NCBI RefSeq assembly: GCF_000237865.1
Contig: NC_017459.1
Coordinates: 568,990 to 608,989 of the forward strand
From: Haloquadratum walsbyi C23
GTDB taxonomy: Archaea > Halobacteriota > Halobacteria > Halobacteriales > Haloferacaceae
Length of the DNA stretch: 40,000 nucleotides
Direction: 5' to 3'
Below the pieces are notes generated by a model. That model had not been told where the DNA came from, searched no databases, and saw only the letters and a list, made by a program, of their open reading frames with translations. Shown here piece after piece: positions 7,228 to 36,693 of the stretch. A program made the translations under genes and the position numbers. Numbering within the stretch: the first letter of the stretch is position 1; every line of letters starts with the position of its first letter.

Positions 7228-8460
7228 TCACCCAGAATTATCCGAAAGATAATCCTCAAGATTCTGTTTGATCTGTCGAAATCGTCGCGGCGGGAATGTC
7301 TCTCCCTCAAGACTATCGACCTCACTTGAGAGACCGCTGTCTGTCGCCTCATCCATCATTCGTTCGAATTTTGACCATGAGACATCTAATAGTGGATCAA
7401 GATCGAACCCACCGAATAATAACAGCACATCGATACTATCTCGACGAGACTGATGTGGTGTGAGCGTCGGCATCTGATGAACAACATTATCCATCCCATT
7501 GCTTGCAAGCCACCGTTGGAGGCGACGTTCAAGACCAGCCTCTGAGTATTCACCACTATCGATTGCGTGTTGTGGGACCCGAACAATCGCGTACACAACT
7601 TTTGCGGTAGCCGGATCCATTGGTATAAAAAGATTATCTGCGGCTTTATCAAAAAGCAATTCTAACTCAAATATTGATGGCTGCTCCATGGCAGTCCCGG
7701 CAGTAAAATGATATTCATCAAGCCGCCGTGGCCATGCAATAAGATCTCGAACGTCGACCACACTGTACGTCTCTCGACCAGCGCTAATCATCATATCAAC
7801 TGCTTCAATCGCATTTCGATTAACCGTCTCATGACGACTTTCGTCATCCTCTCCAAGTTCTTCATCGTTTGAGACATGTGAGTTTGAGATTAATAATACC
7901 ATCTCAGCGTTTTGACTCCCATCATACCATCGAAGTAACCGTGAAAGTCCGGAAACAGCATTAAAATGACGTTGCCCTCCCTCAAAATCATATGGCCATG
8001 CCGCGAGAGCAACATGCGTGACATCGCGCATCGCATTTGTTGGTGGGTTATTTTTCAAACTATCAATAATATATGGCACTGAGCCATTCCCTGTCCCGCC
8101 GCCAAGAGTCGTCATATAGAGAAATGCATCTGCTTCATCAACCCCACCAGTGGTGATTGCCTCTGTAATTCGTGTTTCATCAACTGCAGCGCATTGCTCA
8201 CCACCAGGGAAGTAATTTCCAACACCGTCGAGCGGACCGAACTCAAGCGTGTGATCAGCTCTAATATCCTGAATGTCGATTGTATTCTGTTCAATACGGT
8301 CAATTGTGTTTGCGATGTCTGCGCGATTCGTGTTCATGACTAATACCCGGTCATCGATTCCAGGATTCTCAGTGCGACTGAACAGTGTCGATGCCATCCG
8401 GCCACCCCCCTCACCCGATGCGAGAACGGCCCAGCGCGTGTACGTGTCTGATTGGGACAT
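7228..8460 (-). CDS. Divergent tubulin/FtsZ/CetZ-superfamily GTPase, paralogue 3 (410 aa)
   Basis: T1-like SGEGGGR (8398..8418). T4 signature TLGGGTGNG (8083..8109). T3-like GVGNYFPGG. WPYDFEGGQRHFNAVSGL matches the CetZ pattern LPxxxEGxxxxxNA. T7-like VVDVRDLIA. ATG start; a TATA-like box lies upstream. Confidence 0.8.
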   Translation of the reverse strand: MSQSDTYTRWAVLASGEGGGRMASTLFSRTENPGIDDRVLVMNTNRADIANTIDRIEQNTIDIQDIRADHTLEFGPLDGVGNYFPGGEQCAAVDETRITEAITTGGVDEADAFLYMTTLGGGTGNGSVPYIIDSLKNNPPTNAMRDVTHVALAAWPYDFEGGQRHFNAVSGLSRLLRWYDGSQNAEMVLLISNSHVSNDEELGEDDESRHETVNRNAIEAVDMMISAGRETYSVVDVRDLIAWPRRLDEYHFTAGTAMEQPSIFELELLFDKAADNLFIPMDPATAKVVYAIVRVPQHAIDSGEYSEAGLERRLQRWLASNGMDNVVHQMPTLTPHQSRRDSIDVLLLFGGFDLDPLLDVSWSKFERMMDEATDSGLSSEVDSLEGETFPPRRFRQIKQNLEDYLSDNSG

Positions 8461-8491
8461 ATATATCGGTATACGTGCAGTGTGTAGTTGT

Positions 8492-8498
8492 ATTTATA
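8492..8498 (-). promoter_or_regulatory. TATA-like box (TATAAAT on minus strand) upstream of tubulin-like gene 7228..8460
   Basis: TATAAAT lies 31 nt upstream of ATG 8460, in an AT-rich 400-bp non-coding stretch. Confidence 0.4.
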
Positions 8499-8869
8499 TG
8501 TGTGCTCGATGTCAACTGCGATTGCGTCTTAGTATCGTTGTTGGTTTGATTGCGTTTTTTATTTTGTCTGTGTTCTTGCTGCAGATGGATATCACAAAGC
8601 AAGGTTCAATATCTCACATAATAGCCGATCCTGTCGGCATATCGATATCCAGAGTGGCTTCTTGAAGTAACCTACTGATGATACTGCTGTCTGGATTGCT
8701 ACCGTGTCGGCTTACTTCCAAATAGTCATTATCCATATACACGATGATGAGTTAATCCGAATGGTATTCGCTGATATATATTTTCGATTCGTATCATCAT
8801 ATATACATTTTTAATTCAGTGCTAACTCATTGATGCATATAATTACATGCGAACGTGTATATGTAAGTC

Positions 8870-9100
8870 TAGTTGTGATTGACATCCTCCTCCACATAAA
8901 CGCGGAGGAATCCTGAGCGTGAGCATTAGAGATTTCAGGTTTGCAGTTCCACCGAACCCCGCATGGTGAGAATCCGTGTGGGGTTCACAAACTGTGACGG
9001 GGCGAGTGGGACTGCTGGGAGTGCCACATCTCAGCGTGGCTATTGCAGCGTAGGATTCATCCTGTGGCTGAACCCGTAGGTATTCTCCTTGACCCTGTAT
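8870..9100 (-). repeat. Hairpin-rich non-coding element, copy A; probably a MITE-like derivative of the 3' end of an IS200/IS605-family (IS1341-type) tnpB gene
   Basis: Shares ordered blocks with the inverted copy at 24185..24440: AACGCGGAGGAATCC (8899..8913 vs 24398..24412), TTTCAGGT, and TGGGAGTGCCA (9016..9026 vs 24277..24287), at similar spacing (117 vs 125 nt). Contains a 10-bp hairpin GAACCCCGCA/TGTGGGGTTC. The GCACTCCC core matches the ETALP-coding stretch of the tnpB remnant at 30996..31406. Boundaries are approximate. Confidence 0.5.
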
Positions 9101-9154
9101 AATAGAAATCATGTGTGCATTTTTATGTTATTCTCAACGACAGTATGAAGTAGC

Positions 9155-11251
9155 TCATGATTCCTTTTTTTGCAGTTCTCCGTCAACTATCATACCGTCC
9201 TCATTATTTGTATTGATGAGTGATTTTATTTCACTATCCGGAACTGGAGCTGAAAGGAATCGCTCTCTCAACCCATCAAGTGAAATTGTCTCACCCTTAT
9301 CAAGATTGTATGTGAGTACGTTTGTTAACTCCTGCCGCAGACGGTCACTATCGTACACGATAATCGTTCCATCGGTATTTTCGATTGCGGTGTGGTCAGC
9401 ACGTTCAGCCCATAACACGAGCAAGCATGGAACGTATGATTCATCAATTTGATATGACATTGTTGAACTCAGGTATGTTTTCTCATCAAACTGCGTCGAA
9501 AACCGTGATGCAAGATCATCAAGATACGCTGAGGCTTCCTCAATTATTCCATCACAGACCCGGTCTTGAAGTGTTATTGATGGTACTGATAGCGATATTT
9601 CAGTATCATCACTCACAGAGATCTCCGTTTCAGCTGACCCGAAGTCATCAACAGCAGCTACTGCTGTAACTGTATATTCGCCGAATGGGACATCACTGAA
9701 CGTTGCGGTCCCAACAAGTGGCGTCTCAACGGTCATTTCATCCGTATAGTCCGTACCGTCCAAAACGATTCGAATTTGACGATCAGAACCACCACGTTCG
9801 AACTGGACAGTCACTGTCACGGTGTATGTTTCAGTTCCCCCAACTCGTCTGAGACTTGGAACATCCATGTTGAGTGTCACATGATCGGGGTGTGACCGAT
9901 AATACAGTCCTAAGAACTGAGTCTCATGATTTCGGACAGGAAGCTCCTCGCCGGTAATTTGCCCATCGCTCTGAAGCGCAGATTCAATCACCGGTTCAAC
10001 TTGATTATATCCGCTGATGACAGCGACTTTTGGCTTGACCTTGTCAATTCCGTTCATCAGTGCATCAACTGCCGTAGCCCATCGCTGTTCAAACGTTTGA
10101 AGGGTATCACTATCCTGCACTTTTCTGAGATAATCTGTCTCAACCGCTGCAGGTGGTGTATAATATCCATCTGGAATATCCGCATCAGCGAGCTCTGCAT
10201 CCATTGAATTGAGCTCTGTGGTCAGCGCGTCAATGATCTCAGTGCACTCTGCTCGCGTTTTCTTTCGATGCATCGCAAGTGTTGAAAGATCGACAGCATC
10301 AGTAAGTTCGGCGACAGATCGCCTTCTCTGAGCGATGTCCGGTGCTGAGTCAGGAAGGTACTGCTCGATATTGTACTCATCAACTGTCTGTAGAAGCGAC
10401 TGAAGTTGCTCTCGATTTGTCTTGAATGTGCTTTCACCCTTGGTTTTAATTGCATCGCGTGCACGGAGGAGTGCAGTCACTGCATCAATTATTTGATAAC
10501 TGCTGGCTGCTTCCCGTGCCGTCTCAACCTCTGTTTCGATCGCTGTCGTCTCAATATCATCAGCACTCCGTGCAATGGATTGAATTGTCTCTGCGGCCGC
10601 ATCAACCGTCTCTACTGCCTGCCCTCGAGCAGCCTCGAGTGACTCACCCGCAGCAGCAACTTCTGCACCTGCGGTTGTCGTTGTGACATCAATCGCACGT
10701 ACAGCGTCTCCACCATCCTCAATGAGTGCATCCAGTCGATCGAGCGACTCAGCGATCGTCTCAATGCGGTCTTCGACAGTCTCAGCGAACGCTGCTGGCA
10801 GTTCCTCCTCAATATCATCGACCTGTCCTGATAATGAATTAATTGTTTCAAGATCTGAAACATTACCAACTGAAAACGCACCAGTTTCTGTGTCGACATC
10901 GATTCCTGCTGTTTGAAGATCACGCTGCAGTGAATCAATCCCAAGTCCAACTCCAGTATCAATGATAGCCGGATATGTTTGTTTCAATTGTTGGCGTGTC
11001 TGCCAGATATCACTGAACGTCTCACCAACTTCTCGCGCACGTCGTCGAGTATACTGCGTTTGGTCCGTCCCGCTTGCGTCAACTCGTCGTTGAATCCAGA
11101 CACCACCGCTGATGAGTAACAACGGTACCATCCCAACTGCTGCATATACTGCCCACTGTGACCCAACAGCGACGAAAACACCTGCACTCACCGCTCCAGC
11201 AAACACAACGAGTCCAATAAGACCGGCGGCTGTCCGAGTTGATGATTTCAT
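9155..11251 (-). CDS. Membrane-anchored protein (698 aa): two N-terminal TMs, acidic alpha-helical region of about 400 aa, carboxypeptidase-regulatory/PEGA-like beta-sandwich, C-terminal alpha/beta domain
   Basis: ORF-track model 9155..11347 overlaps the upstream gene by 100 nt. ATG 11251 overlaps its stop as ATGA and starts MKSSTRTAAGLIGLVVFAGAVSAGVFVAV. A positive cluster follows TM2 (IQRRV...RRRAREV). Helical repeats such as DRIETIAESLDRLDALIEDGGDAVRAIDV. Beta motif: ATFSDVPFGEYTVTAVA. Confidence 0.85.
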   Translation of the reverse strand: MKSSTRTAAGLIGLVVFAGAVSAGVFVAVGSQWAVYAAVGMVPLLLISGGVWIQRRVDASGTDQTQYTRRRAREVGETFSDIWQTRQQLKQTYPAIIDTGVGLGIDSLQRDLQTAGIDVDTETGAFSVGNVSDLETINSLSGQVDDIEEELPAAFAETVEDRIETIAESLDRLDALIEDGGDAVRAIDVTTTTAGAEVAAAGESLEAARGQAVETVDAAAETIQSIARSADDIETTAIETEVETAREAASSYQIIDAVTALLRARDAIKTKGESTFKTNREQLQSLLQTVDEYNIEQYLPDSAPDIAQRRRSVAELTDAVDLSTLAMHRKKTRAECTEIIDALTTELNSMDAELADADIPDGYYTPPAAVETDYLRKVQDSDTLQTFEQRWATAVDALMNGIDKVKPKVAVISGYNQVEPVIESALQSDGQITGEELPVRNHETQFLGLYYRSHPDHVTLNMDVPSLRRVGGTETYTVTVTVQFERGGSDRQIRIVLDGTDYTDEMTVETPLVGTATFSDVPFGEYTVTAVAAVDDFGSAETEISVSDDTEISLSVPSITLQDRVCDGIIEEASAYLDDLASRFSTQFDEKTYLSSTMSYQIDESYVPCLLVLWAERADHTAIENTDGTIIVYDSDRLRQELTNVLTYNLDKGETISLDGLRERFLSAPVPDSEIKSLINTNNEDGMIVDGELQKKES

Positions 11252-12369
11252 AATATTGCTCCTATTGTTCCACTGAGGACAGCGATAATAATCCCAGCAA
11301 GAATCAATGCGCCACCACCACCGAGTTGAGCGGAAATTGCAGACCACTCCAGTTGCCGACCAAAGTCGGCGAAATCCCTAGTTTTCCGTCCAAGTATGTG
11401 TGTCCGATAACCAGCAATAACAGCTCCAAGTGCAATTCCTGGGACCGCACCAATCGCGAGATTACTTAACACGCTAATTCGCGCACGCTGCTCAACGGCT
11501 GCAAGTTTCGTTGCATACTGACTCATGGTTGCATTTACCGCCTGCGATTGGTTCTGTTGTTCTGCTGTAATTTCCTCAAATGCATTTAGATGAGGTTCTG
11601 AGCCGTCGCGCGCACGATTGAACAACTGCCTACGGAGTTCTGCTGCATCCGCGCGGGCAGCCGTTCGTGACGCGTTCAGTGTGTTGAGTGTCCGGTTGGC
11701 TTCCTGAAGTTTGCTTACAGTCATATCGACACGTTGTTCATTGGCTGTGAGTTCCTCAGTAGTCGTATTAAGTGAATTAAGTGATTCTGTTATTGATTCC
11801 GTGGCATTACGGTAATCCTGCTCATTGCCTCGGTATGCAGTAGCATTCGAAAATACAAGTGGCTCCTGTGCTAAATCTGATTTGACAGTCCCCTCACGCT
11901 GTGTCTGTATTCGTACTGTATTATCAACAGATGCGCTCAGGGTGGTGTCATCGAGCGTCACGACTGTACTATCGAAGCCGACCGTCGCTCGATATGTTCG
12001 CCCATTGGCACTCGGTGAAATATCAACCAGATTTTCCGTATCAATATCCCATACTGTTGTCTCTCCTGGCTGAGGTCGCTCCGCACCGTTTGCTGTGCAG
12101 TACCCGATGTATAATTCAGTTCCTGGATACACTGGTGTGTTAGCATCATATTGCTGATTATTTAGGAAGACAACAACTGTATCAGTCTCTCCCTGACACG
12201 CGCTCTCGACGGTCTCCTCAGCGGGTTGAACAGCAGCAACTCCGCCGGTTGCTACCGTGAGTGTCACACCAACATTAACAATTAATATAATGACAACGAC
12301 TCCATATCGTATCCACTGTCGGCATTGCATCGGCAATTCATGTTCTTGTGGACGGTTTGTATTCGTCAT
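11248..12369 (-). CDS. Membrane protein (373 aa): N-terminal TM, beta-rich ectodomain, sequon-dense coiled-coil-like segment, two C-terminal TMs
   Basis: ATG 12369 overlaps the upstream stop (ATGA). TM is IRYGVVVIILIVNVGVTLTVATGGV. There are seven N-x-S/T sequons (NAT, NAT, NTT, NRT, NAS, NQS, NAT) in about 110 residues. C-terminal anchor: EQRARISVLSNLAIGAVPGIALGAVIAGYR, plus GGGGALILAGIIIAVLSGTIGAIL. Confidence 0.85.
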   Translation of the reverse strand: MTNTNRPQEHELPMQCRQWIRYGVVVIILIVNVGVTLTVATGGVAAVQPAEETVESACQGETDTVVVFLNNQQYDANTPVYPGTELYIGYCTANGAERPQPGETTVWDIDTENLVDISPSANGRTYRATVGFDSTVVTLDDTTLSASVDNTVRIQTQREGTVKSDLAQEPLVFSNATAYRGNEQDYRNATESITESLNSLNTTTEELTANEQRVDMTVSKLQEANRTLNTLNASRTAARADAAELRRQLFNRARDGSEPHLNAFEEITAEQQNQSQAVNATMSQYATKLAAVEQRARISVLSNLAIGAVPGIALGAVIAGYRTHILGRKTRDFADFGRQLEWSAISAQLGGGGALILAGIIIAVLSGTIGAIL

Positions 12370-12638
12370 AGCTGATTATCCCAGTACAGAAACACACCAA
12401 TACTCCCAAGAATGCTCCCGATGCCTGCTCCGAGGAGTACACCAGCCCCAATATGTTGTATTGTTTGTTGGCTTGTCTTCACCGCTGCAAGCACTGATTC
12501 TGTCTGCATTTGCATGGTTGATGCGCTCGGTGGTGCTGCACCAGCAACAGGATCTGGTGTGAGAGCAATTATTACGCCTACACAAACAAATATACCAACA
12601 GTGACGACCATCCCAATGGTAATCGGTTCACGTCTCAT
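12366..12638 (-). CDS. Small two-TM membrane protein (90 aa)
   Basis: The ATG shares one base with the stop of the upstream tubulin-like gene (TGATG), and its own stop overlaps the next start (ATGA). TMs are ITIGMVVTVGIFVCVGVIIAL and IGAGVLLGAGIGSILGSIGVFLY. Confidence 0.75.
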   Translation of the reverse strand: MRREPITIGMVVTVGIFVCVGVIIALTPDPVAGAAPPSASTMQMQTESVLAAVKTSQQTIQHIGAGVLLGAGIGSILGSIGVFLYWDNQL

Positions 12639-13927
12639 CAGGCAATCACCGCGTCTGATTCCGTTTCATATTCTTCTGCAAGCGTCTCTAATTCAGTAAG
12701 TCGCTCAAGATCCTCTCGTCGATATGTAAATAAAGTTGTGAATGAAACCAAACTTCGATTTGTCAATGTTGCACCAAGATTCACCTCATCACATCGGGCA
12801 TGGAGAAATGACCGCAACGTCGATGTCTGAATTTGGTAGTCTGTATCAGCAATATACGTCGAAGGTGCACGCAACAGTCCAATTGCCTTTCGTGCCTCCC
12901 GTGTATCGACGTCTGCAACAGTTTGTTTTAGTTCAGCGACTTGTGAGAGTGCTGTTGCATCAATCTCATTTTGTCCAATAAACGGCAATAGATATCCAGC
13001 GAGTGATTTCGTCATCTCCACCGACCGACCCATCGACGCGTATCCGGTTTCGGTATCCTCCCCCAGACCGAATGAAAGGCTCGTTACGATATCTTGAATA
13101 TCAATAATTGGTGGATCAACATCATATTCGCTCCGATCAATCCGCTCAAGAACAGTCCCTGAAATGAGACTCACAATTGCAGAGGCGACGTATTCGTTTA
13201 GATCCGTGAACTGTCCCTCTGCGGCTTCATGATATGAAAGCCGTTCATTATCAATGAGGATGATGCCATCTGCAACCTGCTCAATCTGATTGAGTCCATA
13301 GCGAGCATTCCAGGCTTGTCGACTCGGTGAAGCGCCCTCATCAGATTCATTATTGACCGTCCCAACCGGACCCTGAGTATTTGGAAGCACACAGACCGCG
13401 ATTGTTTTGCATGTTCCGCCGGTGTACTCATCAATCGCATCGATAATATGTGCAGTGATTCCACACCCTGTTCCGCCACCAAGTCCACAGAACACAAACG
13501 CAAACGGTACGTTCGTTTCCTCAGTTTCGACCACTGGGTCTGTCGCTGTTGTTCCGGTATCATCCTCTGAGCTATCACCAGTATTCACCGTCTCTTCTTC
13601 GAATTTAATCTGCTCTGTCAATTCATCATACAATGTATTATCAAGCGCTGCCCGGTTATTCGTGATTACCTCATCAGCTCGAACCGGATTGCGCCCGAAT
13701 CCACCTGTCACCTGCTCTTCGAATCCATCTGTCGTTCCCGGGACCAGTCCTGCACCTTCAGCAATTCCGTACCAACTATTTCGATCGATATTTGTGAGCT
13801 TCCGCAGGTCTCTGACTGTCGAATTGAAAACAAGATGTGTCGCAATCTCATCCATATTATTATGAGCGAATATCTCGTCCACAATAGAACTGCCAGCCTG
13901 TCCTGCACCCACAAAAAGGTATGGCAT
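12638..13927 (-). CDS. Divergent tubulin/CetZ-like GTPase, paralogue 2 (429 aa)
   Basis: T1 GAGQAGS (13889..13909; tubulin/CetZ-type GQAG). T3-like GGFGRNPVRA. T4 GLGGGTGCG (13460..13486). VLPNTQGP...NARYGL and IILIDNERL resemble tubulin DNEAL and CetZ FDNDAW. T7-like PIIDIQDIVTSL. Acidic C-terminal tail EEYETESDAVIA. Confidence 0.85.
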   Translation of the reverse strand: MPYLFVGAGQAGSSIVDEIFAHNNMDEIATHLVFNSTVRDLRKLTNIDRNSWYGIAEGAGLVPGTTDGFEEQVTGGFGRNPVRADEVITNNRAALDNTLYDELTEQIKFEEETVNTGDSSEDDTGTTATDPVVETEETNVPFAFVFCGLGGGTGCGITAHIIDAIDEYTGGTCKTIAVCVLPNTQGPVGTVNNESDEGASPSRQAWNARYGLNQIEQVADGIILIDNERLSYHEAAEGQFTDLNEYVASAIVSLISGTVLERIDRSEYDVDPPIIDIQDIVTSLSFGLGEDTETGYASMGRSVEMTKSLAGYLLPFIGQNEIDATALSQVAELKQTVADVDTREARKAIGLLRAPSTYIADTDYQIQTSTLRSFLHARCDEVNLGATLTNRSLVSFTTLFTYRREDLERLTELETLAEEYETESDAVIA

Positions 13928-14035: not shown

Positions 14036-15751
14036 TCACCCGCGTAACTGCTCGAGTAGCACACTGTATGCTTGACGCTCATATAGCTCCATCACCCAAT
14101 CAAGTGTCTCATCAGCGGCCTGTAAATACCCAATTGCTCGGTCGGTATTCCCTGCTGCTCGTGCATCATCAGCTGCTTCCTGCAGTGAGCTCACGAGTTC
14201 AAGAAAGTGAATTGGGATGCTATGATCGTGTGTTGGATACTCAGAAGGATACTCTGTACGAAGGGTTGATCGCCGTGATTCAATCTCTTCAGCGAGTGTC
14301 TGAACGCTAAGCCCACTGGATTCTCCGGTCGGCGACTGTAGTTCTGGGCATAATGTTCGATCATAAAATCGTAATTCCTGTCGCGCTGCATATACACTTA
14401 CACGATCTGCGGGTCCTGCTTGTGAGACAGTTGATTCAAGCTCAGCAGCGCGATCAGCCAATATTTTCCCAATTGCTGCATCGGTTTTTTGAAACTCAGT
14501 CACGAGTGACCCCGCTAACTCAGCGACAGAATCAGTCTCAACCCCCTCGAGCCGGTCTGCGGTAACAGCGGCTTCATCAATTACTGTCACAGCCGATTGC
14601 AGCGTCTCAGCGTACCTCGAAGCAGCAACATCATCTGCTCGGATCACATCAATCAAACTCTGACTTCGACTACTTTGTGGAGAAATTGCTGCCCGCTCAA
14701 TGACAGTATTGATGTCAGTCAGTGCCGTGGTAAAGGCGACTTCCTCATTCGTTAGCGCCGTGGTGATTTCGTCGAGCGCTAAATCGGGATTGGTGTTTGG
14801 ATCAGCACTAACTGACTCACCAGCCTGCTCACGAACAGCGTTGCATATTTTCTCAATGCTCGTAACCATTGACGCCTGTGTACTATGACACTCATCTCTG
14901 TCAGTAACGACATCTGCAAGTCGTTCGCCAATAATTGTGATTGCTGACCCAGCGTCTCCATCGATTTTGACCCCCTTTTGTTGCAGTGTTTGTGCTAATT
15001 GCTCTGGTTCAACATGCGGTCGTACTGTTGACAGTGCTTGGTGTGTCTCAGCATCGCGCTCAATTCGTTCAACTGCTGTGGTAAGTGTATCGGTTAGTCG
15101 TCGTTCAGCAGTGTTATTTGTCGCTTCAAGATACCGAAGAAGTCGGTTCGCAGTGTCTGTCTGTGGGTCTGTCCGTGCTGACGCTGTTTCAGCTGCATTA
15201 GCTAATAACGCCGAGACTGTCTTGTTAGTTGTTTCTGTTCCTTCAGTCATCTTTGTGTGAGTATTTTCACCACTGGTAGTGTTCGTGTCACTCATCACAA
15301 CACTCACATCATCATGGCTTCCTGTCGTCTCCTGCCCTCCAGGCGACGCGTCGGAACCTGATGCAGTTGGTGGGATCAGCTTATTTTGATCTGCAGCGCG
15401 GAGGATTGCAGTCGCCTGCGTTGATGGATTTGCATTTTGATCAACGATTTCTCGTTCGATCAACCTGGCTTCAGCGACAATCTTATTGATAGCGTCGATG
15501 AAGACGGCAGGATCGTGATTTATCTTACCTATTGATTCTGTTGCTTCTGTTGGTTCTATTGTTTCTGACCCTGAGTCACCTTGCGTGCGAATCCCGATAA
15601 TAAATCCTATGACTCCACCAAGAAATAAAGAAATCACCGCCGACCCAGCAAATAATGCTATATTCTCGACACCGAAATCATTGAGTATGTTGATAACGAC
15701 TACCACACCCTTACCGGAAGCCACTCCTGCATCAACGAGTATATTCATCAT
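14036..15751 (-). CDS. Membrane-anchored acidic alpha-helical protein (571 aa), single clear N-terminal TM
   Basis: ORF-track model 14036..15871 overlaps the upstream gene by 113 nt. ATGATG at 15751 lies 7 nt after that gene's TGA and starts MMNILVDAG. TM is IALFAGSAVISLFLGGVIGFIIGI. The remainder is Asp/Glu/Thr/Ala-rich and helical (e.g. RLLRYLEATNNTAERRLTDTLTTAVERIERDAETHQAL). Confidence 0.85.
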   Translation of the reverse strand: MMNILVDAGVASGKGVVVVINILNDFGVENIALFAGSAVISLFLGGVIGFIIGIRTQGDSGSETIEPTEATESIGKINHDPAVFIDAINKIVAEARLIEREIVDQNANPSTQATAILRAADQNKLIPPTASGSDASPGGQETTGSHDDVSVVMSDTNTTSGENTHTKMTEGTETTNKTVSALLANAAETASARTDPQTDTANRLLRYLEATNNTAERRLTDTLTTAVERIERDAETHQALSTVRPHVEPEQLAQTLQQKGVKIDGDAGSAITIIGERLADVVTDRDECHSTQASMVTSIEKICNAVREQAGESVSADPNTNPDLALDEITTALTNEEVAFTTALTDINTVIERAAISPQSSRSQSLIDVIRADDVAASRYAETLQSAVTVIDEAAVTADRLEGVETDSVAELAGSLVTEFQKTDAAIGKILADRAAELESTVSQAGPADRVSVYAARQELRFYDRTLCPELQSPTGESSGLSVQTLAEEIESRRSTLRTEYPSEYPTHDHSIPIHFLELVSSLQEAADDARAAGNTDRAIGYLQAADETLDWVMELYERQAYSVLLEQLRG

Positions 15752-15758
15752 TGTCCAA

Positions 15759-17645
15759 TCACCCCATATTTTCTCGACCAAGACAATCAAACAGTGGCTC
15801 GATTGTTTCCCATGCTTCCCGTAGCTCCTGTGCTTCTTTATTTTCGCTTTGCTCAACAAGCTCTCGCGCATGTTTATACATTCGCTCTAGCGTCGGGAGG
15901 TTTGGATTCCATATGAGCCCCCACAAATAGACATTGTCTACGTGTGGCACAACGAGCTGATTAACATAGATATCAACCGAACTAGGTCCATCATATTGCT
16001 CGCGTGCGAGAAAGTCTTGACCGCTTAGGATTGATGTCAATTCACCATCTTGCAGTAGTGGCTCAAGTTCCTCCATCTTCTCTGCTGGACCATACGCCAT
16101 GAACGTGCCACCCCATGCACTCTTTGGATCAAAATCAACGAGTTGCCCTTGCAGAAGCGTCGATCGTGCAAGTGTATCTAATCGCGCTCTATCGAATCGA
16201 CTGGCACTTGTCGTTCCAATCACTGGCGCCATTACCACAGCGGGAGTGTATGCTCGCTCACTAGCGACGCTATATTTTCGTTGGACTGGGCGAAAACTGT
16301 CTGGAACATCAAACACCTCACCACTAATTCGTTCAGTCCCCGTAGTATCTGCTGACTGTGGTGTTGACGACATCGTAAACGCCTCAAGGAACGTCACCAA
16401 TAGGCGATTTACATCAGTGTACATTGGTGGATTATAATGCTCAAGTGCCGCCTGATCAATATCGACAGCAAAATCGGTTCGCTGTGCATCAAGTTTGCTA
16501 TTATCGAATGGGATGATACCATCAACGTGTTTTGAGAGATATGCCATTCCAACTACCCCACGAACCATCTCTGATGCGCCAAATTCAGTCTCCGACGGAA
16601 GGACCACAGAACTCAAAATTGGCTTCGAAAGTGTCGTTGCGTCTGCAACACCTGTTCCCTCACTCACGAGATTTCGAATATTCTTCGCTAAAACTGGAGT
16701 AGATCCACATCCAGTGCCCTTTGTAACGCTGTGGATCAACATCACAGCCTGTGATGCCTCTAAATCACGCTGGTCAACATCAAGCCGGTCCTTGATTGCA
16801 TTTTTTTCATCCTCAAAATCTTTCTGCATGAGTGTTCGACCAACCTTCCAATTACGCCCTGCACCGCTGTAATTATGATGTCGGTAGCCAATCATCCCAT
16901 TTGTAATGAGTTTTTCTCTTGAAAACGCTCGATCCTGCTGTGCATAAAATGTATTTCCTAACTCCGCAATATTGGTATTCAATCCTGCATAGTCTGCTAG
17001 CCCACCATCCCATACTTGTGCAAGCGGACTATTTTGCTCACGCAGCGTCTCTCGACGGAGTAAAATAGCGTCAAGAATATGATTACCAGCCCCACCGACA
17101 CCAATCATCTGCCATTTATTCCCTGTTGCGCCAACCAGCGGCGTTGACCCAGGGACACTCACACTGTTGTCGACACCCTCGTCACTGATTGCATTCACAC
17201 TCTCACTCTCCAAGCGATTTTGTCCGGCGTCATCACGTATCTCGATAGTGTCGGTCGAATTCGACCCGTTCCCTCTATTTACACTTCGTGTCGACCCCGA
17301 TGATCCTTGATTAGTTGAATTCGATGTTGATTGTGTTAAATTATGTGCTCCTTCCGTATTTGAATTGGTATCACTACTTGCGCTGTCGTTATGATGTGAT
17401 TCACTCTCATTTTGACTTCCAGTGCCTGACGTCGTAATATGTAGTGATGAGTCCTCATCATCGCTATCCGAGCTATCATCGCGATACTGCGGTCGCAACT
17501 CGCCATTGCTATCAAAGATTGTATTATATCGGTCTGCGTATACCTCTTGAACGGATGCTGGTGTTCCTGCATGGTCAGCAGCGATGTGTTCTTCAATACT
17601 TTGCTCATCAATTTCGCGCAGGCAGATTTTGCAATTGTCTGTCAT
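15759..17645 (-). CDS. Zinc-finger-fused divergent tubulin/FtsZ-superfamily GTPase, paralogue 1 (628 aa)
   Basis: N-terminal CKICLREIDEQSIEEHIAADH has the pattern C-x2-C-x11-H-x4-H (17571..17633). Ser/Asn/Asp/Thr low-complexity linker at about residues 55-175. T1 GVGGAGN (17082..17102). T3 GAGRNWKVG (16839..16865; compare tubulin GAGNNWAKG). Degenerate T4 KGTGCGS (16701..16721). VVLPSETEFG...IIPFDNSKL. Starts 6 nt after the upstream stop. Confidence 0.8.
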   Translation of the reverse strand: MTDNCKICLREIDEQSIEEHIAADHAGTPASVQEVYADRYNTIFDSNGELRPQYRDDSSDSDDEDSSLHITTSGTGSQNESESHHNDSASSDTNSNTEGAHNLTQSTSNSTNQGSSGSTRSVNRGNGSNSTDTIEIRDDAGQNRLESESVNAISDEGVDNSVSVPGSTPLVGATGNKWQMIGVGGAGNHILDAILLRRETLREQNSPLAQVWDGGLADYAGLNTNIAELGNTFYAQQDRAFSREKLITNGMIGYRHHNYSGAGRNWKVGRTLMQKDFEDEKNAIKDRLDVDQRDLEASQAVMLIHSVTKGTGCGSTPVLAKNIRNLVSEGTGVADATTLSKPILSSVVLPSETEFGASEMVRGVVGMAYLSKHVDGIIPFDNSKLDAQRTDFAVDIDQAALEHYNPPMYTDVNRLLVTFLEAFTMSSTPQSADTTGTERISGEVFDVPDSFRPVQRKYSVASERAYTPAVVMAPVIGTTSASRFDRARLDTLARSTLLQGQLVDFDPKSAWGGTFMAYGPAEKMEELEPLLQDGELTSILSGQDFLAREQYDGPSSVDIYVNQLVVPHVDNVYLWGLIWNPNLPTLERMYKHARELVEQSENKEAQELREAWETIEPLFDCLGRENMG

Positions 17646-17651
17646 TGTCGG

Positions 17652-19580
17652 TTATGCGTATACTGATTGTAGTTGCTTCATTACTCGTCGTGGGCTCACT
17701 CCATCTGCGACTTCAATAGAGAGGAATCCTGGTGGTGGATTCGATGGAACTGCTACGTGAACTACATCGCCTTGTCGCTCGGCGAATGATTTAATTTCAT
17801 TAAGAACGGCTGATTTGATAAACTTCGCCGGGAGTTGCTCAGTTTGGAGTTCGACAGTGCTTTTTCCACGCTGAGATGCGGCATTCGCTTGCAGTTCACC
17901 AAGCACATACAGCACATCATCATGTGGTACCTCTGCATCTTGGGGGTTACCCCCGGTTAATGCTGCATGTTCACCTGTGCTATCTACCGTCCCACTATAT
18001 TCTGCTCCGGTCGAATTGGTGGTGGCATCGCCTCCAGTAGACTCTGTTTCTGGATTGTTACTCTCTGTTATATTTAACACCCCCTCTGCAACCTCATATT
18101 CAATATAATAACTCTGTTCAAATGGCACGCGTAATCTCTCAACAAGAGTAGCATCGATTGACGATGGGACAGGAATTGAACCGGATCCGTACTCAATCGT
18201 CGCTGTGACGCTTTGACCAAAGAACTCGGCAATTTGAACTATCTCTCTTGCCTCTGTCTCTGCTGCGTCAGCCGATTGTATTGCTGCATCAAATCGACAT
18301 TCATGTAATGTTTTGAGTGCTTCCTCACGATAATCATCAACAGTTGGCTTTGTTGGCAGAGATTCACCAGTCGATGACTCCGGTGTCCGACCTTCGAGGA
18401 GATACGCCTCAAGTCGTTCTTGTGCCGGTCCCTCTAATTCATCAAGATTTGCTGTCGCCGTCTCGATTGCTCTCTGTGCTGCATCTAGTGATTCAGCAAT
18501 AGATTCTTCATGTGTCTGAAGTGTTTGCTCAATCGCATCAAGATGTGTATCAATTGTATCAATTGCCCCAGCAACAGCAGCAAGTCCATCCGGATCCGCT
18601 TCGATCGTTTCGGTAAGTCGAGTTGCTATTTCATGCTGCGATCCCCCAATCTGAATAGTTGGTTCATCAATTGTTGGTAATGAGACCGAGTTGTGCGTCC
18701 GCAGATTTCGGATCGTATACTCACGACTGAATCGTGAAACATAGTGCACATCACTGTATCGTTCGTTAATTTTGTCTTCGACTTGTCGCTCTAATGTAGA
18801 TATTACTCGCGTAGCAGTCTCCCCTGCAACATCATTGAGTTTCGCCGCATCAGCTTGCAGTTGTGCAGCTGTATCATGACGCTCACGACTCGATGTTGAC
18901 CCATCGACAACTGCATCCGCTTCATCCTGAACCGCTTGACACCGATCTCGAAACTCACTGCATTGTGATTCGAACGCTGTGACCGCCTCTGGTGCAATTG
19001 TCTTTAGTGAAGATTGTACCTGTTCGCCCACAACTCGCTCAATTTGACTGTTAAACGTTGTGAGCGCCTCCTGTGTGTCTTCGCGGGCAGTAGATAACGC
19101 CTTTGTAGCCTCTGAATCAAGTGTTATACTCCAATCAAAAACAAGCGATGCTGCCCAACTCATCGCTGCGGTTCCGATAGGGACAAACAAGAACCCAGCA
19201 GTTTGAATCGCTGGGAGCCCTGCGGAAGCAACTGGAAGATACACAAGCTCAAATAACACAAGAAATAGTGTCACAAATCCGGTTGCACCAAGCGTTATGA
19301 CACGATGTCGAAGCGCAAATAATCCAACACCCTGTGCAGTCCATGCAAGTGCAATGAGGACAAATAATATAAAGACAATCGTCGAACTTGACCGGAAAAT
19401 ATTACCTGCGACCCTAAACACAGAAATTGACCATAAAAACCGAGTAAGTGACCCGATCAAGGGAATTACTGTGACTGTCGTCTCAAGCAGCGCGACCGTT
19501 GCCTGCACGAAGGATGCAAGAATTGGCAACCCAGCGACAGCCCAACAGCCTGCCGCAATTCGCCGCCTGTTCTGCAACAT
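17652..19580 (-). CDS. Polytopic membrane protein (642 aa): about 5 N-terminal TMs followed by an acidic, largely alpha-helical region of about 470 aa and a small C-terminal domain
   Basis: ATG start MLQNRRRIAAGCWAVAGLPILASF. Hydrophobic segments run to about residue 165. Helical repeats include AVAGAIDTIDTHLDAIEQTLQTHEESIAESLDAAQRAIETATANLDELEG. First gene of the locus, with a TATA-like box upstream. Confidence 0.85.
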   Translation of the reverse strand: MLQNRRRIAAGCWAVAGLPILASFVQATVALLETTVTVIPLIGSLTRFLWSISVFRVAGNIFRSSSTIVFILFVLIALAWTAQGVGLFALRHRVITLGATGFVTLFLVLFELVYLPVASAGLPAIQTAGFLFVPIGTAAMSWAASLVFDWSITLDSEATKALSTAREDTQEALTTFNSQIERVVGEQVQSSLKTIAPEAVTAFESQCSEFRDRCQAVQDEADAVVDGSTSSRERHDTAAQLQADAAKLNDVAGETATRVISTLERQVEDKINERYSDVHYVSRFSREYTIRNLRTHNSVSLPTIDEPTIQIGGSQHEIATRLTETIEADPDGLAAVAGAIDTIDTHLDAIEQTLQTHEESIAESLDAAQRAIETATANLDELEGPAQERLEAYLLEGRTPESSTGESLPTKPTVDDYREEALKTLHECRFDAAIQSADAAETEAREIVQIAEFFGQSVTATIEYGSGSIPVPSSIDATLVERLRVPFEQSYYIEYEVAEGVLNITESNNPETESTGGDATTNSTGAEYSGTVDSTGEHAALTGGNPQDAEVPHDDVLYVLGELQANAASQRGKSTVELQTEQLPAKFIKSAVLNEIKSFAERQGDVVHVAVPSNPPPGFLSIEVADGVSPRRVMKQLQSVYA

Positions 19581-19994: not shown

Positions 19995-22799
19995 TTATTC
20001 CTCACTATCAGCGTCTGTTAGCTGTTTCTGCCACTGCTCGACGGTTTGCAGGAGCGTCACCGGTGCTGTTGATTCAATATCGAGCGATTGGAGTTCATTG
20101 ATTACTTCCTTTGTGTCTGAATCAACTCTGGCATGTTCAGGGTTTTCGGATGTAGCTCGATTATTCTTGAGTTTCCTGTTATCACTCGTAGGAGTCGTTT
20201 GGTTTTCTGTATTTTCGCCTGCTTCAGCAACTCGAATGTCACCACTATTGACGTCAAAGACAACCTGTTGTGTTGTTTCTGCGCTCTTATCGCCTCCAGT
20301 CATATTCTCTTCTTGATCGCGTTTGGATGTATCAGCGTGATTTTGTGTCTCAACCTCGATTGCTTCATCAGCACGAAGTGTTGATAGTACGTCTCTTGCT
20401 CGTGTGAGGACTGGATCCGGAACACCAGCAAGTTCTGCCACATGGATTCCATATGAACGGTCCGCTGGTCCTGATTCAACAGTGCGAAGAAACGTCACAT
20501 CGCCATTACGCTCCTCTGCAGCGACATGGACATTTGAGACGCCTGTGATTCGATCTGCTAATGTTGTGAGTTCATGATAGTGTGTTGCAAAAAGAACGCG
20601 CGGTGATGGTGCTGTTGATTGCGCTGCTGAGAGATACTCTGTTGCAGCCCATGCAATTGATATTCCATCATACGTCGCTGTCCCTCGACCGACTTCATCA
20701 AGAATAACGAGCGACTCAGAGGATGCTGAGTGAAGAATCTTCGAAAGCTCCTGCATTTCAACCATGAATGTTGACCGACCCTGTGCAAGTTCATCTAATG
20801 CACCAACACGCGTGTAAATTCCATCAACAGCCCCAATTGTGGCGGCTGCTGCTGGGACAAAACTTCCAGCGTGTGCAAGAAGAGTAATAAGTGCCACCTG
20901 TCGAAGATACGTTGATTTCCCGCTCATATTTGGTCCTGTAACAAGCAGGAAATTCCGTTCATCTTCTAACTGGAGGTCATTTGGAACAAACTCTGTTGTC
21001 TGCTCGACAACCGGGTGCCGACCGGCCTCAATATCAACTGTATGATCGGCGCGTAGCGTCGGACGTGTCCAGTCGTTTTCGACGGCATGTGTCGCGAGTG
21101 AGTGAAGTGCGTCTATCTCTGCAATAACTTGTCCGACTGTCTGTAACATCGCAGCGTAGTCAGCAATCTGCTCACGGAGTTCACAAAACAACTCATATTC
21201 CATCTCACCACGTGATTCCTCTAATCGAAGGATGTCTCGCTCACGCTCAGCAAGTTCATCTGTTTTAAATCGCTTCGAGTTTTTGAGAGTTTTAATCTCA
21301 CGATAGTGTTCTGGGACTTGATCCGCAACAGATTTGCCAACCTGTATATAATGACCATCAGTTTTGTTTCGATCGACACTGAGGTGATTTAGATTATGTG
21401 TCTCCGTCTCTCGCTGGGCTAGTTTGTCCATCCACTCCTGGGCAGTCTCATGACGTTCTCGAAGGGAATCAAGTTCAGCATCATATCCATATTGGAACAA
21501 GCCGCCGTCTCGAATTGTCTTTGGGGGCTCATCAACAAGCGCTGCTGTAAGTTCATCCCGAACAACTTTTACAGTATCCTCAGTTGGTCGAGTGACCACC
21601 TGCATCAAAGGCGATTCAGACAATATTGATTCTGTGATAACTTCATCGAGCGTTGGGAGTATCTCGAGCGTTTCTCGAATTCTAAGGAGATCAGTGGCAT
21701 CAGCACGTTCAGAGATACACCGCGCAGCTAATCGTTCGAGATCATAGCTTCCATTCAGTGTTTCAGCGATTCGCTCACGAGCCAATGGTGCGTCTACAAG
21801 CGCCTCAATGCAGTCAAGTCGACGAGTTATCTCTGTTTGCACGCGCTGTGGTCGCATTATCCACTCTCGAAGTTGCCGGTGCCCCGCACTTGTTGCGGTA
21901 TGGTCAATCGTCCCGAGAAGCGTTCCATCCCCACCGCGGTCGCCATGCATTGTCTCGGTCAATTCAAGATTACGTCGTGTCGTCGTATCCAGTGCGAGGT
22001 GAGTATCTGAATCCAGCGGTTGTAATCTCGTTATTGCGGCGCGAACACCTGTGTCTGTTTCATCGATATACGTAAGTATTGCACCAGCAGCCTGTATCGC
22101 AACATCAGTCTCAATATTGAGACTATCAATTGCAGTTGTACCAAACTGCTCGCTAAGAATATGACGCGCACGTCCAAGAGCAAAGGCTGCTGTTTCAAAT
22201 GAAGACACTGTCGCATCAGTGCCGTCACGAAGTCGCCGAATAAAGTCATCAGCATTCCTAACGGTTGGACCAGGGAGAATTTCAACTGGGTCAAATCGAG
22301 TGAGCTCTGCATATGCAGTCTCAGCATCCGCAACGTCACCAATAAAAAACGAGCCGGTTGTTACTTCGGCAAACGCAATCCCAATAGTCGTCTCAGTTGT
22401 CTCAGTTGTCTCAGTCGCTGTGAGATCCCCAACAACGGCTGCGATATACCGCGCATCAGCATCATCAGTCGATAATAATGTTCCGGGCGTGACAACTCGA
22501 CTGATGCGACGATAATGATCTCCATCGTCGGCTTCATATTGGTCTGCGACAGCAACCCGATATCCACGCTCAACAAGCGATTTAAGATATGGAGTCAGGT
22601 CATCAACCGGCACTCCAGCCATTGGATATGAGGACCCATGTGAGGATTTTTCTGAAACTGTGAGGTCGAGCTCCGCGGACACTAATTCAGCGTCTTCAGC
22701 AAAGAACTCATAGAAATCACCACATTGCATCGTCAATAGATCCGCGTCTGTCTCAGCGCGAAGGGAGAAAAACTCGTCTACGATTCCCTGCGAGGTCAT
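19995..22799 (-). CDS. mutS: DNA mismatch repair protein MutS (934 aa)
   Basis: N-terminal mismatch-binding region (LLTMQCGDFYEFFAEDAE, YPMAGVP). Walker A GPNMSGKSTYLRQ. STFMVEMQE and DEVGRGTATYDG motifs. Long acidic C-terminal tail. TTTTAT box at 22824..22829, 24 nt upstream of the ATG. Confidence 0.95.
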   Translation of the reverse strand: MTSQGIVDEFFSLRAETDADLLTMQCGDFYEFFAEDAELVSAELDLTVSEKSSHGSSYPMAGVPVDDLTPYLKSLVERGYRVAVADQYEADDGDHYRRISRVVTPGTLLSTDDADARYIAAVVGDLTATETTETTETTIGIAFAEVTTGSFFIGDVADAETAYAELTRFDPVEILPGPTVRNADDFIRRLRDGTDATVSSFETAAFALGRARHILSEQFGTTAIDSLNIETDVAIQAAGAILTYIDETDTGVRAAITRLQPLDSDTHLALDTTTRRNLELTETMHGDRGGDGTLLGTIDHTATSAGHRQLREWIMRPQRVQTEITRRLDCIEALVDAPLARERIAETLNGSYDLERLAARCISERADATDLLRIRETLEILPTLDEVITESILSESPLMQVVTRPTEDTVKVVRDELTAALVDEPPKTIRDGGLFQYGYDAELDSLRERHETAQEWMDKLAQRETETHNLNHLSVDRNKTDGHYIQVGKSVADQVPEHYREIKTLKNSKRFKTDELAERERDILRLEESRGEMEYELFCELREQIADYAAMLQTVGQVIAEIDALHSLATHAVENDWTRPTLRADHTVDIEAGRHPVVEQTTEFVPNDLQLEDERNFLLVTGPNMSGKSTYLRQVALITLLAHAGSFVPAAAATIGAVDGIYTRVGALDELAQGRSTFMVEMQELSKILHSASSESLVILDEVGRGTATYDGISIAWAATEYLSAAQSTAPSPRVLFATHYHELTTLADRITGVSNVHVAAEERNGDVTFLRTVESGPADRSYGIHVAELAGVPDPVLTRARDVLSTLRADEAIEVETQNHADTSKRDQEENMTGGDKSAETTQQVVFDVNSGDIRVAEAGENTENQTTPTSDNRKLKNNRATSENPEHARVDSDTKEVINELQSLDIESTAPVTLLQTVEQWQKQLTDADSEE
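22389..22415. repeat. Three tandem 9-bp units (GTCTCAGTT x2, GTCTCAGTC) inside mutS, encoding TETTETTETT
   Basis: Read directly from the sequence. The repeat is in frame and lies in a loop of the N-terminal domain (DLTATETTETTETTIGIAF). Confidence 0.9.
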
Positions 22800-31407: not shown

Positions 31408-32640
31408 TCACGATGGTGCCATATCGATCCCAGATTCAGACATTCGCCAGACAGAGAATCCCCCTGCGACGCCAAGGCTGCCGGCAAACCAGAGTATTAT
31501 TACATAACTACCAGTGATTGCAACAAGTTCACCGGCGATGACAGGCGCGACAAATGACCCCAGCCAACCAGCAACACTCGCAATCGAGACGGCTGTGCCG
31601 GCAGCCTTTGGATCAACAAATTCCTGTGCTGACTGGTACAGTAGTCCAATTTGAAGTTGAATGACTACTCCCGCCAAAATGAGCATCATGACCAATATGG
31701 TGACGCTGATTGTGTAAAAAAGAGCAACCGTGACCACGATAGCACCAACAAACGATGCGGCGAAGATAGGTCGTCGACGCTGATTCAATACAACATCCGA
31801 GACCCATCCACCAACTGGTCGGGCAATAATACCAACAGCTGGGAATAAGGCAACAAATGTCCCGCTCTCCGCCAATGAAATATCAAACTGCTGGATAATA
31901 TATGTAGGCATCCATGAATTGAATACCATATATAATGAGTATGCAAGGACAGTAACAATAACAATAGACCAGATATTTCGATTAACAAACACCTGTCTGA
32001 ATTCAGCAAATGTAGGTGATTCAGCCGGCGTTTCAAACCGAGTGACATTCCCAACCGCAAAATAAAATACAACTGACGATACCAGAACCGCTGCGCCAAA
32101 GAGTGGAAACACGCCTGGCCAGCCGACGATTTCGGCAACACGGGGGGCGCTAAATTGCCCGAGCGCGTATCCTGCTGGGTATCCAGAGATAATCACCGAT
32201 GTTGCCGTTGCCCGTCGGGTTGGTGGAACAGTACTTGATGCAACATTGATACAAACAACCCATAAGACAAACATTCCAGCACCAGCGAACAGCCGCGAAG
32301 CAATGAGTAACAGTATGTTTCCTGCGCCGCCGGCAAACCAATCACCCACACTCCCGATAAGAAGTACAACAGCAGCGGCAGGGACAACGCCACGAGTTTG
32401 GACACGGTCGAGGTATAGCCCGACTGGTATGCCAACAACTGTTGCTGTAACCTGTGGCATCGAGACAAGGGCTGCAGCCGTGGCTTCGGTGATATCGAGG
32501 TCGTTCATAACTACTGTGAGAATACTCGCTGGAGTGATGAGATATGAGCCGACGAATAACAGCACCAGCCACCCAGTTGCGATGGTGACAACACGCCAGA
32601 ATATTATACTTGTCTTCTCTGTCGACTCAAAAACCTCCAT
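31408..32640 (-). CDS. MFS-family transporter (410 aa)
   Basis: About 12 TMs. MFS loop motif GIPVGLYLDRVQTRG (GxxxDRxGxR-like) between TM2 and TM3. Confidence 0.85.
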   Translation of the reverse strand: MEVFESTEKTSIIFWRVVTIATGWLVLLFVGSYLITPASILTVVMNDLDITEATAAALVSMPQVTATVVGIPVGLYLDRVQTRGVVPAAAVVLLIGSVGDWFAGGAGNILLLIASRLFAGAGMFVLWVVCINVASSTVPPTRRATATSVIISGYPAGYALGQFSAPRVAEIVGWPGVFPLFGAAVLVSSVVFYFAVGNVTRFETPAESPTFAEFRQVFVNRNIWSIVIVTVLAYSLYMVFNSWMPTYIIQQFDISLAESGTFVALFPAVGIIARPVGGWVSDVVLNQRRRPIFAASFVGAIVVTVALFYTISVTILVMMLILAGVVIQLQIGLLYQSAQEFVDPKAAGTAVSIASVAGWLGSFVAPVIAGELVAITGSYVIILWFAGSLGVAGGFSVWRMSESGIDMAPS

Positions 32641-36635: not shown

Positions 36636-36693
36636 AGTATGTTACGTATGGTTATGAACAAAAAACGGACGGAATATTATCGACGGACGGTAC

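Follow-up and report, generated by a model that had tools for sequence, protein, structure and literature searches.

A noncanonical haloarchaeal tubulin homologue with a predicted N-terminal C2H2-type zinc finger, encoded in a three-tubulin gene array beside the Halo_adaptin ESCRT-like system

To connect to membranes or cargo, proteins of the tubulin superfamily normally rely on short C-terminal peptides or on separate adaptors. The gene analyzed here, designated B, encodes a divergent member of this superfamily that opens with a predicted C2H2-type zinc finger on a long, disordered tether, and is located in a 40,000-nucleotide stretch of the Haloquadratum walsbyi C23 genome (contig NC_017459.1, positions 568,990 to 608,989; this whole stretch is referred to as the window). 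The best structural match of its core is found in the haloarchaeal CetZ proteins (H. volcanii CetZ1 and CetZ2, PDB 4b46 and 4b45), which, like B, are tubulin-superfamily paralogues apart from the division FtsZs. However, identity to B is limited to 16%, the gene neighbourhood of B is unrelated, and B differs by approximately 175 N-terminal amino acids (aa) of finger and linker, a tubulin-like T3 loop (GAGxxWxxG) and a T4 loop of the form TKGTGCG. In the literature, haloarchaeal proteins of this kind are placed outside CetZ. One set of Halobacterota paralogues, whose position is unstable between CetZ and tubulin, was termed 'Halo.Tub' (Santana-Molina et al., 2023; PMC9871819); some of their N-terminal blocks are eukaryotic-tubulin-like, and quasi-tandem copies and coiled-coil-rich neighbours were described (PMC9871819). 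Compared by description only, the locus of B fits Halo.Tub and the related non-canonical proteins (PMC9871819; PMC9856176). Neither PMC9871819 nor PMC9856176 (Brown and Duggin, 2023) mentions zinc or links these proteins to an ESCRT-like module.

Such a module has been described separately. The representative locus of the ESCRT-like Halo_adaptin system is the H. walsbyi C23 region analyzed here (Makarova et al., 2024; PMC10936438). This system comprises two winged-helix proteins, a PspA/ESCRT-III-like protein, a Vps4-like ATPase, two adaptin-like proteins with propeller and immunoglobulin (Ig) domains, other Ig-like proteins, a membrane protein as well as a CetZ-related protein. The ATPase carries a substrate-recognition N-domain of the Cdc48/VAT type instead of a MIT domain, and the published model pairs it with an ESCRT-III-like substrate (PMC10936438). 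In the lettering used below, the supplementary gene table runs through K, J, I and H (H being 'FtsZ3', arCOG02202) and then ends: the H. walsbyi list contains no gene past H, and the accessions of A, B and C are absent from the supplements searched (PMC10936438). The published genes H to K are genes of the array described here, with one published CetZ-like protein against three tubulin paralogues in the array.

Three further systems resemble B in architecture or context. Bacterial FtsZ combines a polymerizing core with a variable, unconserved disordered linker and a small conserved docking element; that element is a short C-terminal peptide for FtsA, ZipA or SepF, whereas B has its tether at the N-terminus, capped by a folded C2H2-type domain. 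The Haloferax protein CdpC, according to a preprint, anchors FtsZ1 to the haloarchaeal membrane by means of zinc-finger domains and a long disordered linker (bioRxiv 10.64898/2026.07.16.738847). It is a separate protein with zinc ribbons according to the same source, whereas the finger of B is built into the tubulin homologue. Finally, FtsZl1 (PF13809; Makarova and Koonin, 2010, PMC2875224) is likewise a divergent tubulin-superfamily protein, encoded in operons with membrane proteins and predicted to act in membrane remodelling. In contrast to B, it measures approximately 1,000-1,150 aa, contains a coiled coil and no finger, and its T6-H7 elements could not be identified (PMC2875224), whereas B possesses a complete C-terminal domain and T7.

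Gene B is an open reading frame (ORF) of 628 aa (15759..17645, minus strand). By exact-sequence look-up, its product is WP_014555346.1/CCC39500.1 of the H. walsbyi C23 chromosome. Genome coordinates equal window coordinates plus 568,989, gene H being matched to HQRW_RS02575 (576217..577449). Depending on the source, B is named 'FtsZ family protein, noncanonical', 'FtsZ/tubulin family protein' or 'cell division protein FtsZ'. Judged by its score, the last of these names is an over-annotation: an assignment to FtsZ proper, the cell division protein, was rejected at 28.2 bits on the TIGR00065 equivalog model, far below the cut-off of 295.2. Membership in FtsZl1/Tubulin_2 was rejected as well, because PF13809 yields 18.9 bits (cut-off 27) and the C-terminal half of B corresponds to the canonical tubulin/FtsZ C-domain. 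A homologue search among 5.8 billion proteins returned 108 clusters, in which all matches named by source belong to Halobacteria; no Haloferax homologue was among the matches. On this evidence, B belongs to the tubulin/FtsZ superfamily as a noncanonical member and, as far as sampled, occurs in Halobacteria and in some unplaced metagenome relatives. The parts of B are as follows, each with the evidence on which it was delimited (AF2, AlphaFold2; HMM, hidden Markov model; pLDDT, predicted local distance difference test).

17511..17645, minus strand: N-terminal zinc-finger module, residues 1-45 (conservation, AF2, HMM and profile)
17571..17633, minus strand: predicted C5-x2-C8-x11-H20-x4-H25 finger within the module (alignment and AF2)
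17118..17510, minus strand: predicted disordered linker, residues 46-176 (pLDDT, no conservation)
15759..17117, minus strand: tubulin/FtsZ core, residues 177-628 and stop codon, with GTPase and C-terminal domains (PF00091, AF2 and Foldseek)

Residues 5-25 of B read CKICLREIDEQSIEEHIAADH (nt 17571..17633), and a ligand pattern of the form C-x2-C-x(9-17)-H-x(3-4)-H opens nearly all full-length homologues. In an alignment of 88 sequences, M1, C5, C8 and H20 are invariant, while H25 and Y36 are conserved in at least 90%. The finger is followed by a conserved helical extension, S-V-x-x-V-Y-P-D-x-Y-x-x-L-F or SVxxVY(A/P)DxYxxIF. The homologues without a complete finger are either fragments or start at an internal Met just past CKIC, which indicates miscalled start codons in those seeming to lack the finger. 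Gene callers placed the start at an internal Met past the CxxC in 15-20% of homologues. When the six-frame ORFs of the window and of 38 related loci were scanned with an HMM of the module, every locus had a match at the N-terminal end of the tubulin ORF, and no other ORF matched. Between J07HQW1 and C23, 42/45 residues of the module are identical, and the codon changes comprise 9 synonymous and 3 replacement changes. This identity in the presence of nine synonymous changes shows that the module is translated and under purifying selection. The ATG of B lies 6 nt past the stop codon of the upstream gene A, which leaves no space for a separate B promoter; A and B share the same reading frame, with the stop codon in between. 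In relatives of B at 30-35% identity, the module is present in two tandem copies.

Structure prediction supports a small, autonomous domain. In the full-length AF2 model, generated with the family alignment, residues 1-55 reach a pLDDT of 85-97, and residues 1-58 modelled alone yield a pLDDT of 89.8 and a predicted template modelling score (pTM) of 0.71. The isolated N-terminus is predicted to contain strands at residues 3-4 and 11-12 and three helices, the first of which spans 17-24 and includes H20. As residues 1-58 fold alone in the model and show the secondary structure of the full-length prediction, the module is an autonomous domain, and the predicted finger adopts the beta-beta-alpha fold of classical C2H2 fingers. 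A Foldseek search of the module against the PDB gave no significant match, with E-values >3 on classical C2H2 fingers. Local superpositions, non-significant by E-value, were obtained with fingers of ZBTB7A, ZBTB20, SALL3, BCL11A and CTCF (2.0-2.4 A over 26-29 columns), and BIR, UBZ and U1C-type fingers are also among the non-significant neighbours.

At the sequence level, a search of 1.84 billion representatives with a module profile retrieved 302 proteins at E <=0.001, the best 150 of which were considered. Among these, the fetched proteins that matched the whole 55-residue profile in a single stretch (seven sequences in addition to the listed members) were all members of the B family or fragments of them, and the matches to the finger core alone (profile positions 4-33) were proteins with 3-24 tandem matches. 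Six of these core-only matches were scanned with Pfam and corresponded to zf-C2H2, zf-C2H2_4, zf-H2C2_5, zf-met, Di19, Ros/MucR or GAGA models, strongly in two of the proteins and below the cut-offs in some others. For the finger of B alone, Pfam and NCBIfam returned nothing at threshold, and its homologues gave only sub-threshold zf-met2 and zf-Di19 matches; the finger is unannotated because Pfam fails to recognise it. The spacing C-x2-C-x11-H of B is one residue shorter than the PROSITE C2H2 pattern. Overall, the conserved ligand spacing and the models support the prediction that the N-terminus of B is a zinc finger of the C2H2 type.

The initial annotation of this DNA had proposed a C2H2-like finger at these coordinates, joined to a GTPase of the tubulin type. 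The motif is present as reported and its ligands are conserved, also in the relatives at 30-35% identity that carry two fingers; the label C2H2-like agrees with the predicted fold, with the local though non-significant superpositions and with the retrieval of poly-C2H2 proteins by the profile. The true start is placed upstream of the finger by conservation, synonymous changes and the short gap to A, and the combination of finger and tubulin core in one ORF recurs in 38/38 related loci.

The linker that connects the module to the core (residues 46-176) is composed of 22% Ser and of 10-11% each of Asn, Asp, Gly and Thr, and pLDDT is below 50 for residues 59-173. Throughout the family its length varies from 27 to 140 aa (median 52) and its sequence conservation is nil. 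Even between J07HQW1 and C23, only 57/117 linker residues are identical, with 14 gaps in addition, whereas the core retains 440/452 identical residues in the presence of 148 synonymous changes.

The core is recognised by PF00091 with 50.2 bits (cut-off 33 bits, E = 4.9e-13, residues 180-385). The full-length AF2 model has a mean pLDDT of 82.4, and most of the core (178-628) exceeds 90. In Foldseek comparisons, the top match of the core is CetZ1 (4b46; E = 5e-16, target-normalised TM-score 0.80), followed by CetZ2; FtsZs, gamma- and beta-tubulin, OdinTubulin, BtubA and TubZ were matched as well, over 410-515 columns with a probability of 1.00. E-values for CetZ1/CetZ2, FtsZ and tubulins range from 5e-16 to 4e-12. 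A profile-sequence search of the PDB with B produced a similar mixture, in which CetZ1 was second-best.

Several loops of the core can be assigned. T1 is FtsZ-like (GVGGAGN, 17082..17102); T3 reads GAGRNWKVG (16839..16865), with a family consensus of GAGRRWxxG in which the Trp is conserved, and aligns with SGAGNNWAKG of a beta-tubulin sequence; T4 reads SVTKGTGCG (16704..16730), opposite GLGGGTGTG of FtsZ; and T7/H8 reads GEVFDVPDS (16296..16322). The register of the loops was checked against FtsZ and against the same beta-tubulin. In the 88-sequence alignment, G182, G184-N188, S306, K309, G310, T311, G312 and G314 are invariant, as are the Asn residues of T6 (N382) and H7 (N413) and the pair D446-x-x-D449, located at the H7/H8 junction of the model. 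The T4 loop of B does not match the signature GGGTG[ST]G: its first two Gly are replaced by Thr and Lys, and the GTGxG core is retained. The Lys is kept in the most distant members (SVVKGTGSG, TAVKGTGSG), and the alignment presents this T4 variant with its invariant Lys as a family signature and no decay. Since the T1, T6, H7 and DxxD residues are invariant, nucleotide binding and polymer-activated hydrolysis by the core are plausible.

For the remainder of the protein, the initial annotation is largely borne out. The linker described there as rich in Ser, Asn, Asp and Thr corresponds to the low-confidence segment above, the FtsZ-like T1 and tubulin-like T3 are in register with FtsZ and the beta-tubulin, and the core models as a complete tubulin/FtsZ fold. 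Its reading of T4 as degenerate holds for the replacement of the first two Gly and fails where decay is meant, as the variant is invariant in the family. It had missed the existing noncanonical-FtsZ annotation, the conservation of the T4 variant and the array of 11 genes with three tubulin paralogues next to the Halo_adaptin system. This array, in which B is the second gene, consists of the following further members (TM, transmembrane segment).

17652..19580, minus strand: A, 642 aa; approximately four N-terminal TM and a long, helical, coiled-coil-like soluble part by hydropathy
14036..15751, minus strand: C, 571 aa; hydrophobic N-terminus and long helical region, directly downstream of B
12638..13927, minus strand: D, 429 aa; tubulin paralogue 2 (PF00091, E = 4.8e-11)
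12366..12638, minus strand: E, 90 aa; two TM
11248..12369, minus strand: F, 373 aa; TM and coiled coil
9155..11251, minus strand: G, approximately 700 aa; N-terminal TM or signal, coiled-coil-like, prealbumin/Ig-like domain
7228..8460, minus strand: H, 410 aa; tubulin paralogue 3 (PF00091, E = 3.6e-10), HQRW_RS02575
3933..7223, minus strand: I, 1,096 aa; Ig-like, arCOG04500
2613..3809, minus strand: J, 398 aa; membrane-anchored, arCOG12846
<1..2551, minus strand: K, partial, running off the window; adaptin-appendage-like, HQRW_RS02560

All genes from 19580 to the start of the window are on the minus strand, mostly overlapping or spaced by a few nt, such as 6-7 nt (the start and stop codons of E and F overlap those of their neighbours), with wider gaps of approximately 60-125 nt at C-D, I-J and J-K and of 694 nt at G-H. 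The order A-B-C-D(-E-F)-G-H(-I) was recovered by tblastn in essentially every locus that is long enough (33 loci, approximately 20 haloarchaeal genera). A, the direct upstream neighbour of B, matches coiled-coil families weakly and keeps its synteny with B in almost every locus, the most distant included. G has a weak, sub-threshold SpaA prealbumin-like match and is found downstream of F in approximately 30 loci. Both additional tubulin paralogues are without the finger: D has T1 GAGQAGS, a canonical T4 (GGGTGCG) and T7 IDIQD, and H, conserved in approximately 30 loci, has a canonical GGGTGxG T4 and a DxxD T7. D and H are very divergent from each other, and a BLASTP comparison of B with D revealed no significant similarity. 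Metagenomic relatives at 31-32% identity keep nothing but A-, B- and C-like genes together. The distant relatives with two fingers (loci L034, 8001..10127, and L036, 2424..4328; P0103-P0108 and P0184) are located beside FtsZl1 (PF13809, approximately 1,145 aa), and a PQQ-propeller gene is also near B relatives in one of the two locus types (L036/L037).

Some observations on the array and its surroundings can be added. The C orthologue of Natrinema sp. SYSU A 869 (locus L039, 21753..23576) carries an N-terminal bPH_2 domain (E = 9e-8) and a zinc ribbon in the place of the hydrophobic N-terminus of C in the window, and the N-terminal part of C that is predicted to associate with the membrane appears to be interchangeable. 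The G-H gap (8461..9154, 694 nt) contains no ORF of at least 150 aa. Its length is 486 nt in J07HQW1 and, in other genera, only approximately 5-100 nt; a small gene, an internal promoter or an RNA might be located in it. A MutS homologue (19995..22799, minus strand) lies directly upstream of the array; it is adjacent in J07HQW1, not in other genera, and its position is probably a coincidence. Further away, 31408..37890 (minus strand) contains a major facilitator superfamily transporter and a phosphate-type ATP-binding cassette set (PBP, two permeases and ATPase) with a G+C content of 51-57% compared to approximately 47%. Here, the permease ORF 33904..35514 overlaps the ATPase ORF 32988..34190 as listed, and the starts are probably miscalled in the mechanical ORF list. 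A defence-system reading of the island-like, plasmid-borne cluster with its flanking insertion sequence (IS) elements was rejected: PADLOC returned only weak coiled-coil matches to ZorA, JetC and LmuB and one marginal HORMA match in F.

The window coordinates of H-K match the C23 locus table of the Halo_adaptin publication (PMC10936438), and by coordinate mapping in C23, the module on which the array converges, with its Vps4-like ATPase, ESCRT-III-like and winged-helix genes, lies just outside the start of the window. The same arrangement was found on plasmid PHS2 of Halobacterium salinarum R1, where the array runs from OE_RS12075 (A) to OE_RS12025 (K) and converges on OE_RS12000-12020, encoding winged-helix, ESCRT-III-like, ATPase and PQQ-propeller proteins. 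BLASTP confirmed orthology between C23 and PHS2 for A-D and F-K and gave no match for E; the B orthologue OE_RS12070 starts with MRCKICSL...H...H. Plasmids of Natrinema sp. SYSU A 869 and Halobaculum roseum show the same layout, with an AAA/ATP-binding gene on the opposite strand. In these four genomes, C23 included, the array was seen to be linked to the ATPase module, while approximately 30 other loci, retrieved with 10-kb flanks, reach only from A to I. Plasmids carry the array in Halobacterium R1 (PHS2), in two strains of Natrinema and in three Halobaculum species, with IS elements or integrases on its flanks, which suggests that the supercluster of approximately 24 kb is horizontally mobile. 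The array is located on the chromosome in H. walsbyi, Halovenus salina and Halosimplex rubrum.

With about even confidence, B is proposed to be a filament-forming protein whose finger docks a protein partner from the array, as an element of membrane-associated remodelling or sorting. Here, the core would polymerize in a GTP-dependent manner, like CetZ or FtsZ, and the finger module, at the end of a flexible tether, would be the head that docks onto another protein. This head would play the role that the C-terminal peptide plays on the disordered linker of FtsZ, at the opposite end of the protein, and would link the filament to the product of another gene of the array. Membrane protein A or C is the likeliest candidate, since nothing but the A-B-C triad is retained in the most distant relatives. 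As a whole, the assembly may then constitute a membrane-associated, tubulin-based element of a machine for membrane remodelling or protein sorting. The data fit a docking module on a flexible tether. Docking is preferred over nucleic-acid binding because the module is acidic (median net charge of -7 over 46 residues), because Asp or Glu make up 39-69% at the positions that touch DNA in classical fingers, those ahead of the first His, because a search for centromere-like or iteron-like repeats upstream of the array found none, and because no small DNA-binding adaptor gene adjoins B.

Several points weigh against this proposal. The docking partner is a guess from synteny, and the soluble parts of A and C could face outward. 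Haloarchaeal proteins are acidic in general, which leaves the acidity argument against nucleic acids with moderate force. As the first two Gly of T4 are replaced, nucleotide binding by B is not assured, and linkage of the array to the ATPase module was directly verified in four genomes only. A wider version, in which B, D and H would form a membrane-tethered cytoskeleton of three tubulins, with the finger on A or C, and would work together with the ESCRT-III/Vps4-like and adaptin-like proteins, is put forward tentatively and judged rather unlikely.

Among the alternatives, the one that survives best places the partner of the finger within the tubulin superfamily itself: bound to a subunit of B, D or H, it would act as an intramolecular autoinhibitor, a filament cross-linker or an assembly switch sensitive to zinc or redox state, instead of a membrane tether. 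Three co-conserved tubulin paralogues are encoded in one array, and a tether of 27-140 aa permits binding in cis or to a neighbouring subunit. A precedent is given in the CdpC preprint, in which the zinc-finger C-terminal domain of the Haloferax protein binds FtsZ1 directly and promotes its assembly; however, those fingers are described there as zinc ribbons, another class (bioRxiv 10.64898/2026.07.16.738847). Moreover, the distant relatives keep, and even duplicate, the finger together with A- and C-like genes, while D and H are not in their sequenced context, and the module folds alone, so that the model needs no docking on the core. Such an intramolecular or intersubunit role is considered unlikely.

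Classical C2H2 fingers and the bacterial Ros/MucR fingers bind DNA, and B might accordingly be a TubZ-like segregation motor for plasmids or islands, or an RNA-binding cytoskeletal protein. The frequent location of the array on plasmids, between IS elements and integrases, agrees with such a function, as do the Ros/MucR-like matches of the module profile and, at non-significant E-values, the U1C-type RNA-binding fingers among the Foldseek neighbours. Against it stand the acidity of the module and of its DNA-reading helix positions, and the chromosomal location of the array in three of the species named above. A type III partition system of the TubZ/TubR kind would moreover be expected to differ in context: centromere-like repeats are absent upstream, and B is adjoined by genes for large membrane and coiled-coil proteins and by no TubR-like gene. 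The 24-kb array as a whole encodes mostly membrane, Ig-like, propeller and ESCRT-like proteins and not partition functions. Binding of nucleic acid by the finger is judged quite improbable on these grounds.

A folded tag on a long disordered segment is also a typical entry point for unfoldases, and the finger with its disordered tail could be a handle by which the Vps4/Cdc48-like AAA+ ATPase extracts or unfolds B and disassembles its filaments. The array adjoins an AAA+ ATPase gene in four genera, and the Cdc48/VAT-type N-domain of that enzyme is one for substrate recognition (PMC10936438). However, no ATPase gene is found within the 8 kb flanking the distant double-finger relatives, and the published model already gives the ATPase an ESCRT-III-like substrate (PMC10936438); a handle function is very improbable. 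The last alternative, a chance Cys/His pattern upstream of the true start and hence an annotation artefact, to which the internal starts and the sub-threshold Pfam matches might point, has a negligible probability and is already refuted by the conservation of the ligands and of the module across the aligned sequences and loci, together with the predominance of synonymous changes, the confident model of the isolated domain and its tandem duplication in relatives.

In outline, the protein family of B and its odd phylogenetic position are already known, and the gene bears a sensible manual annotation. In the literature searched, no description was found of the conserved N-terminal C2H2-type domain with its tether, of the invariant T4 lysine, or of B and a second tubulin paralogue as parts of an extended Halo_adaptin supercluster. 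In B, a folded C2H2-type domain would be part of the tubulin homologue itself, carried N-terminally by a tether whose behaviour resembles that of the C-terminal linker of FtsZ; if the docking proposal is true, this built-in domain would be a new way to couple a tubulin homologue to its target. The array extends the published Halo_adaptin locus by seven genes, two more tubulin paralogues included, and turns the vague notion of a CetZ-like protein nearby into a defined, testable array of three tubulins. Its presence on PHS2 of the genetically tractable Halobacterium salinarum R1 makes experiments feasible. If the three tubulins do work with the ESCRT-III/Vps4-like and adaptin-like proteins, tubulin, ESCRT and coat-adaptor-like modules would be united in a single prokaryotic machine for vesicle formation or protein sorting. 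The locus is of moderate to high interest for the archaeal cytoskeleton and for the origin of eukaryotic trafficking systems.

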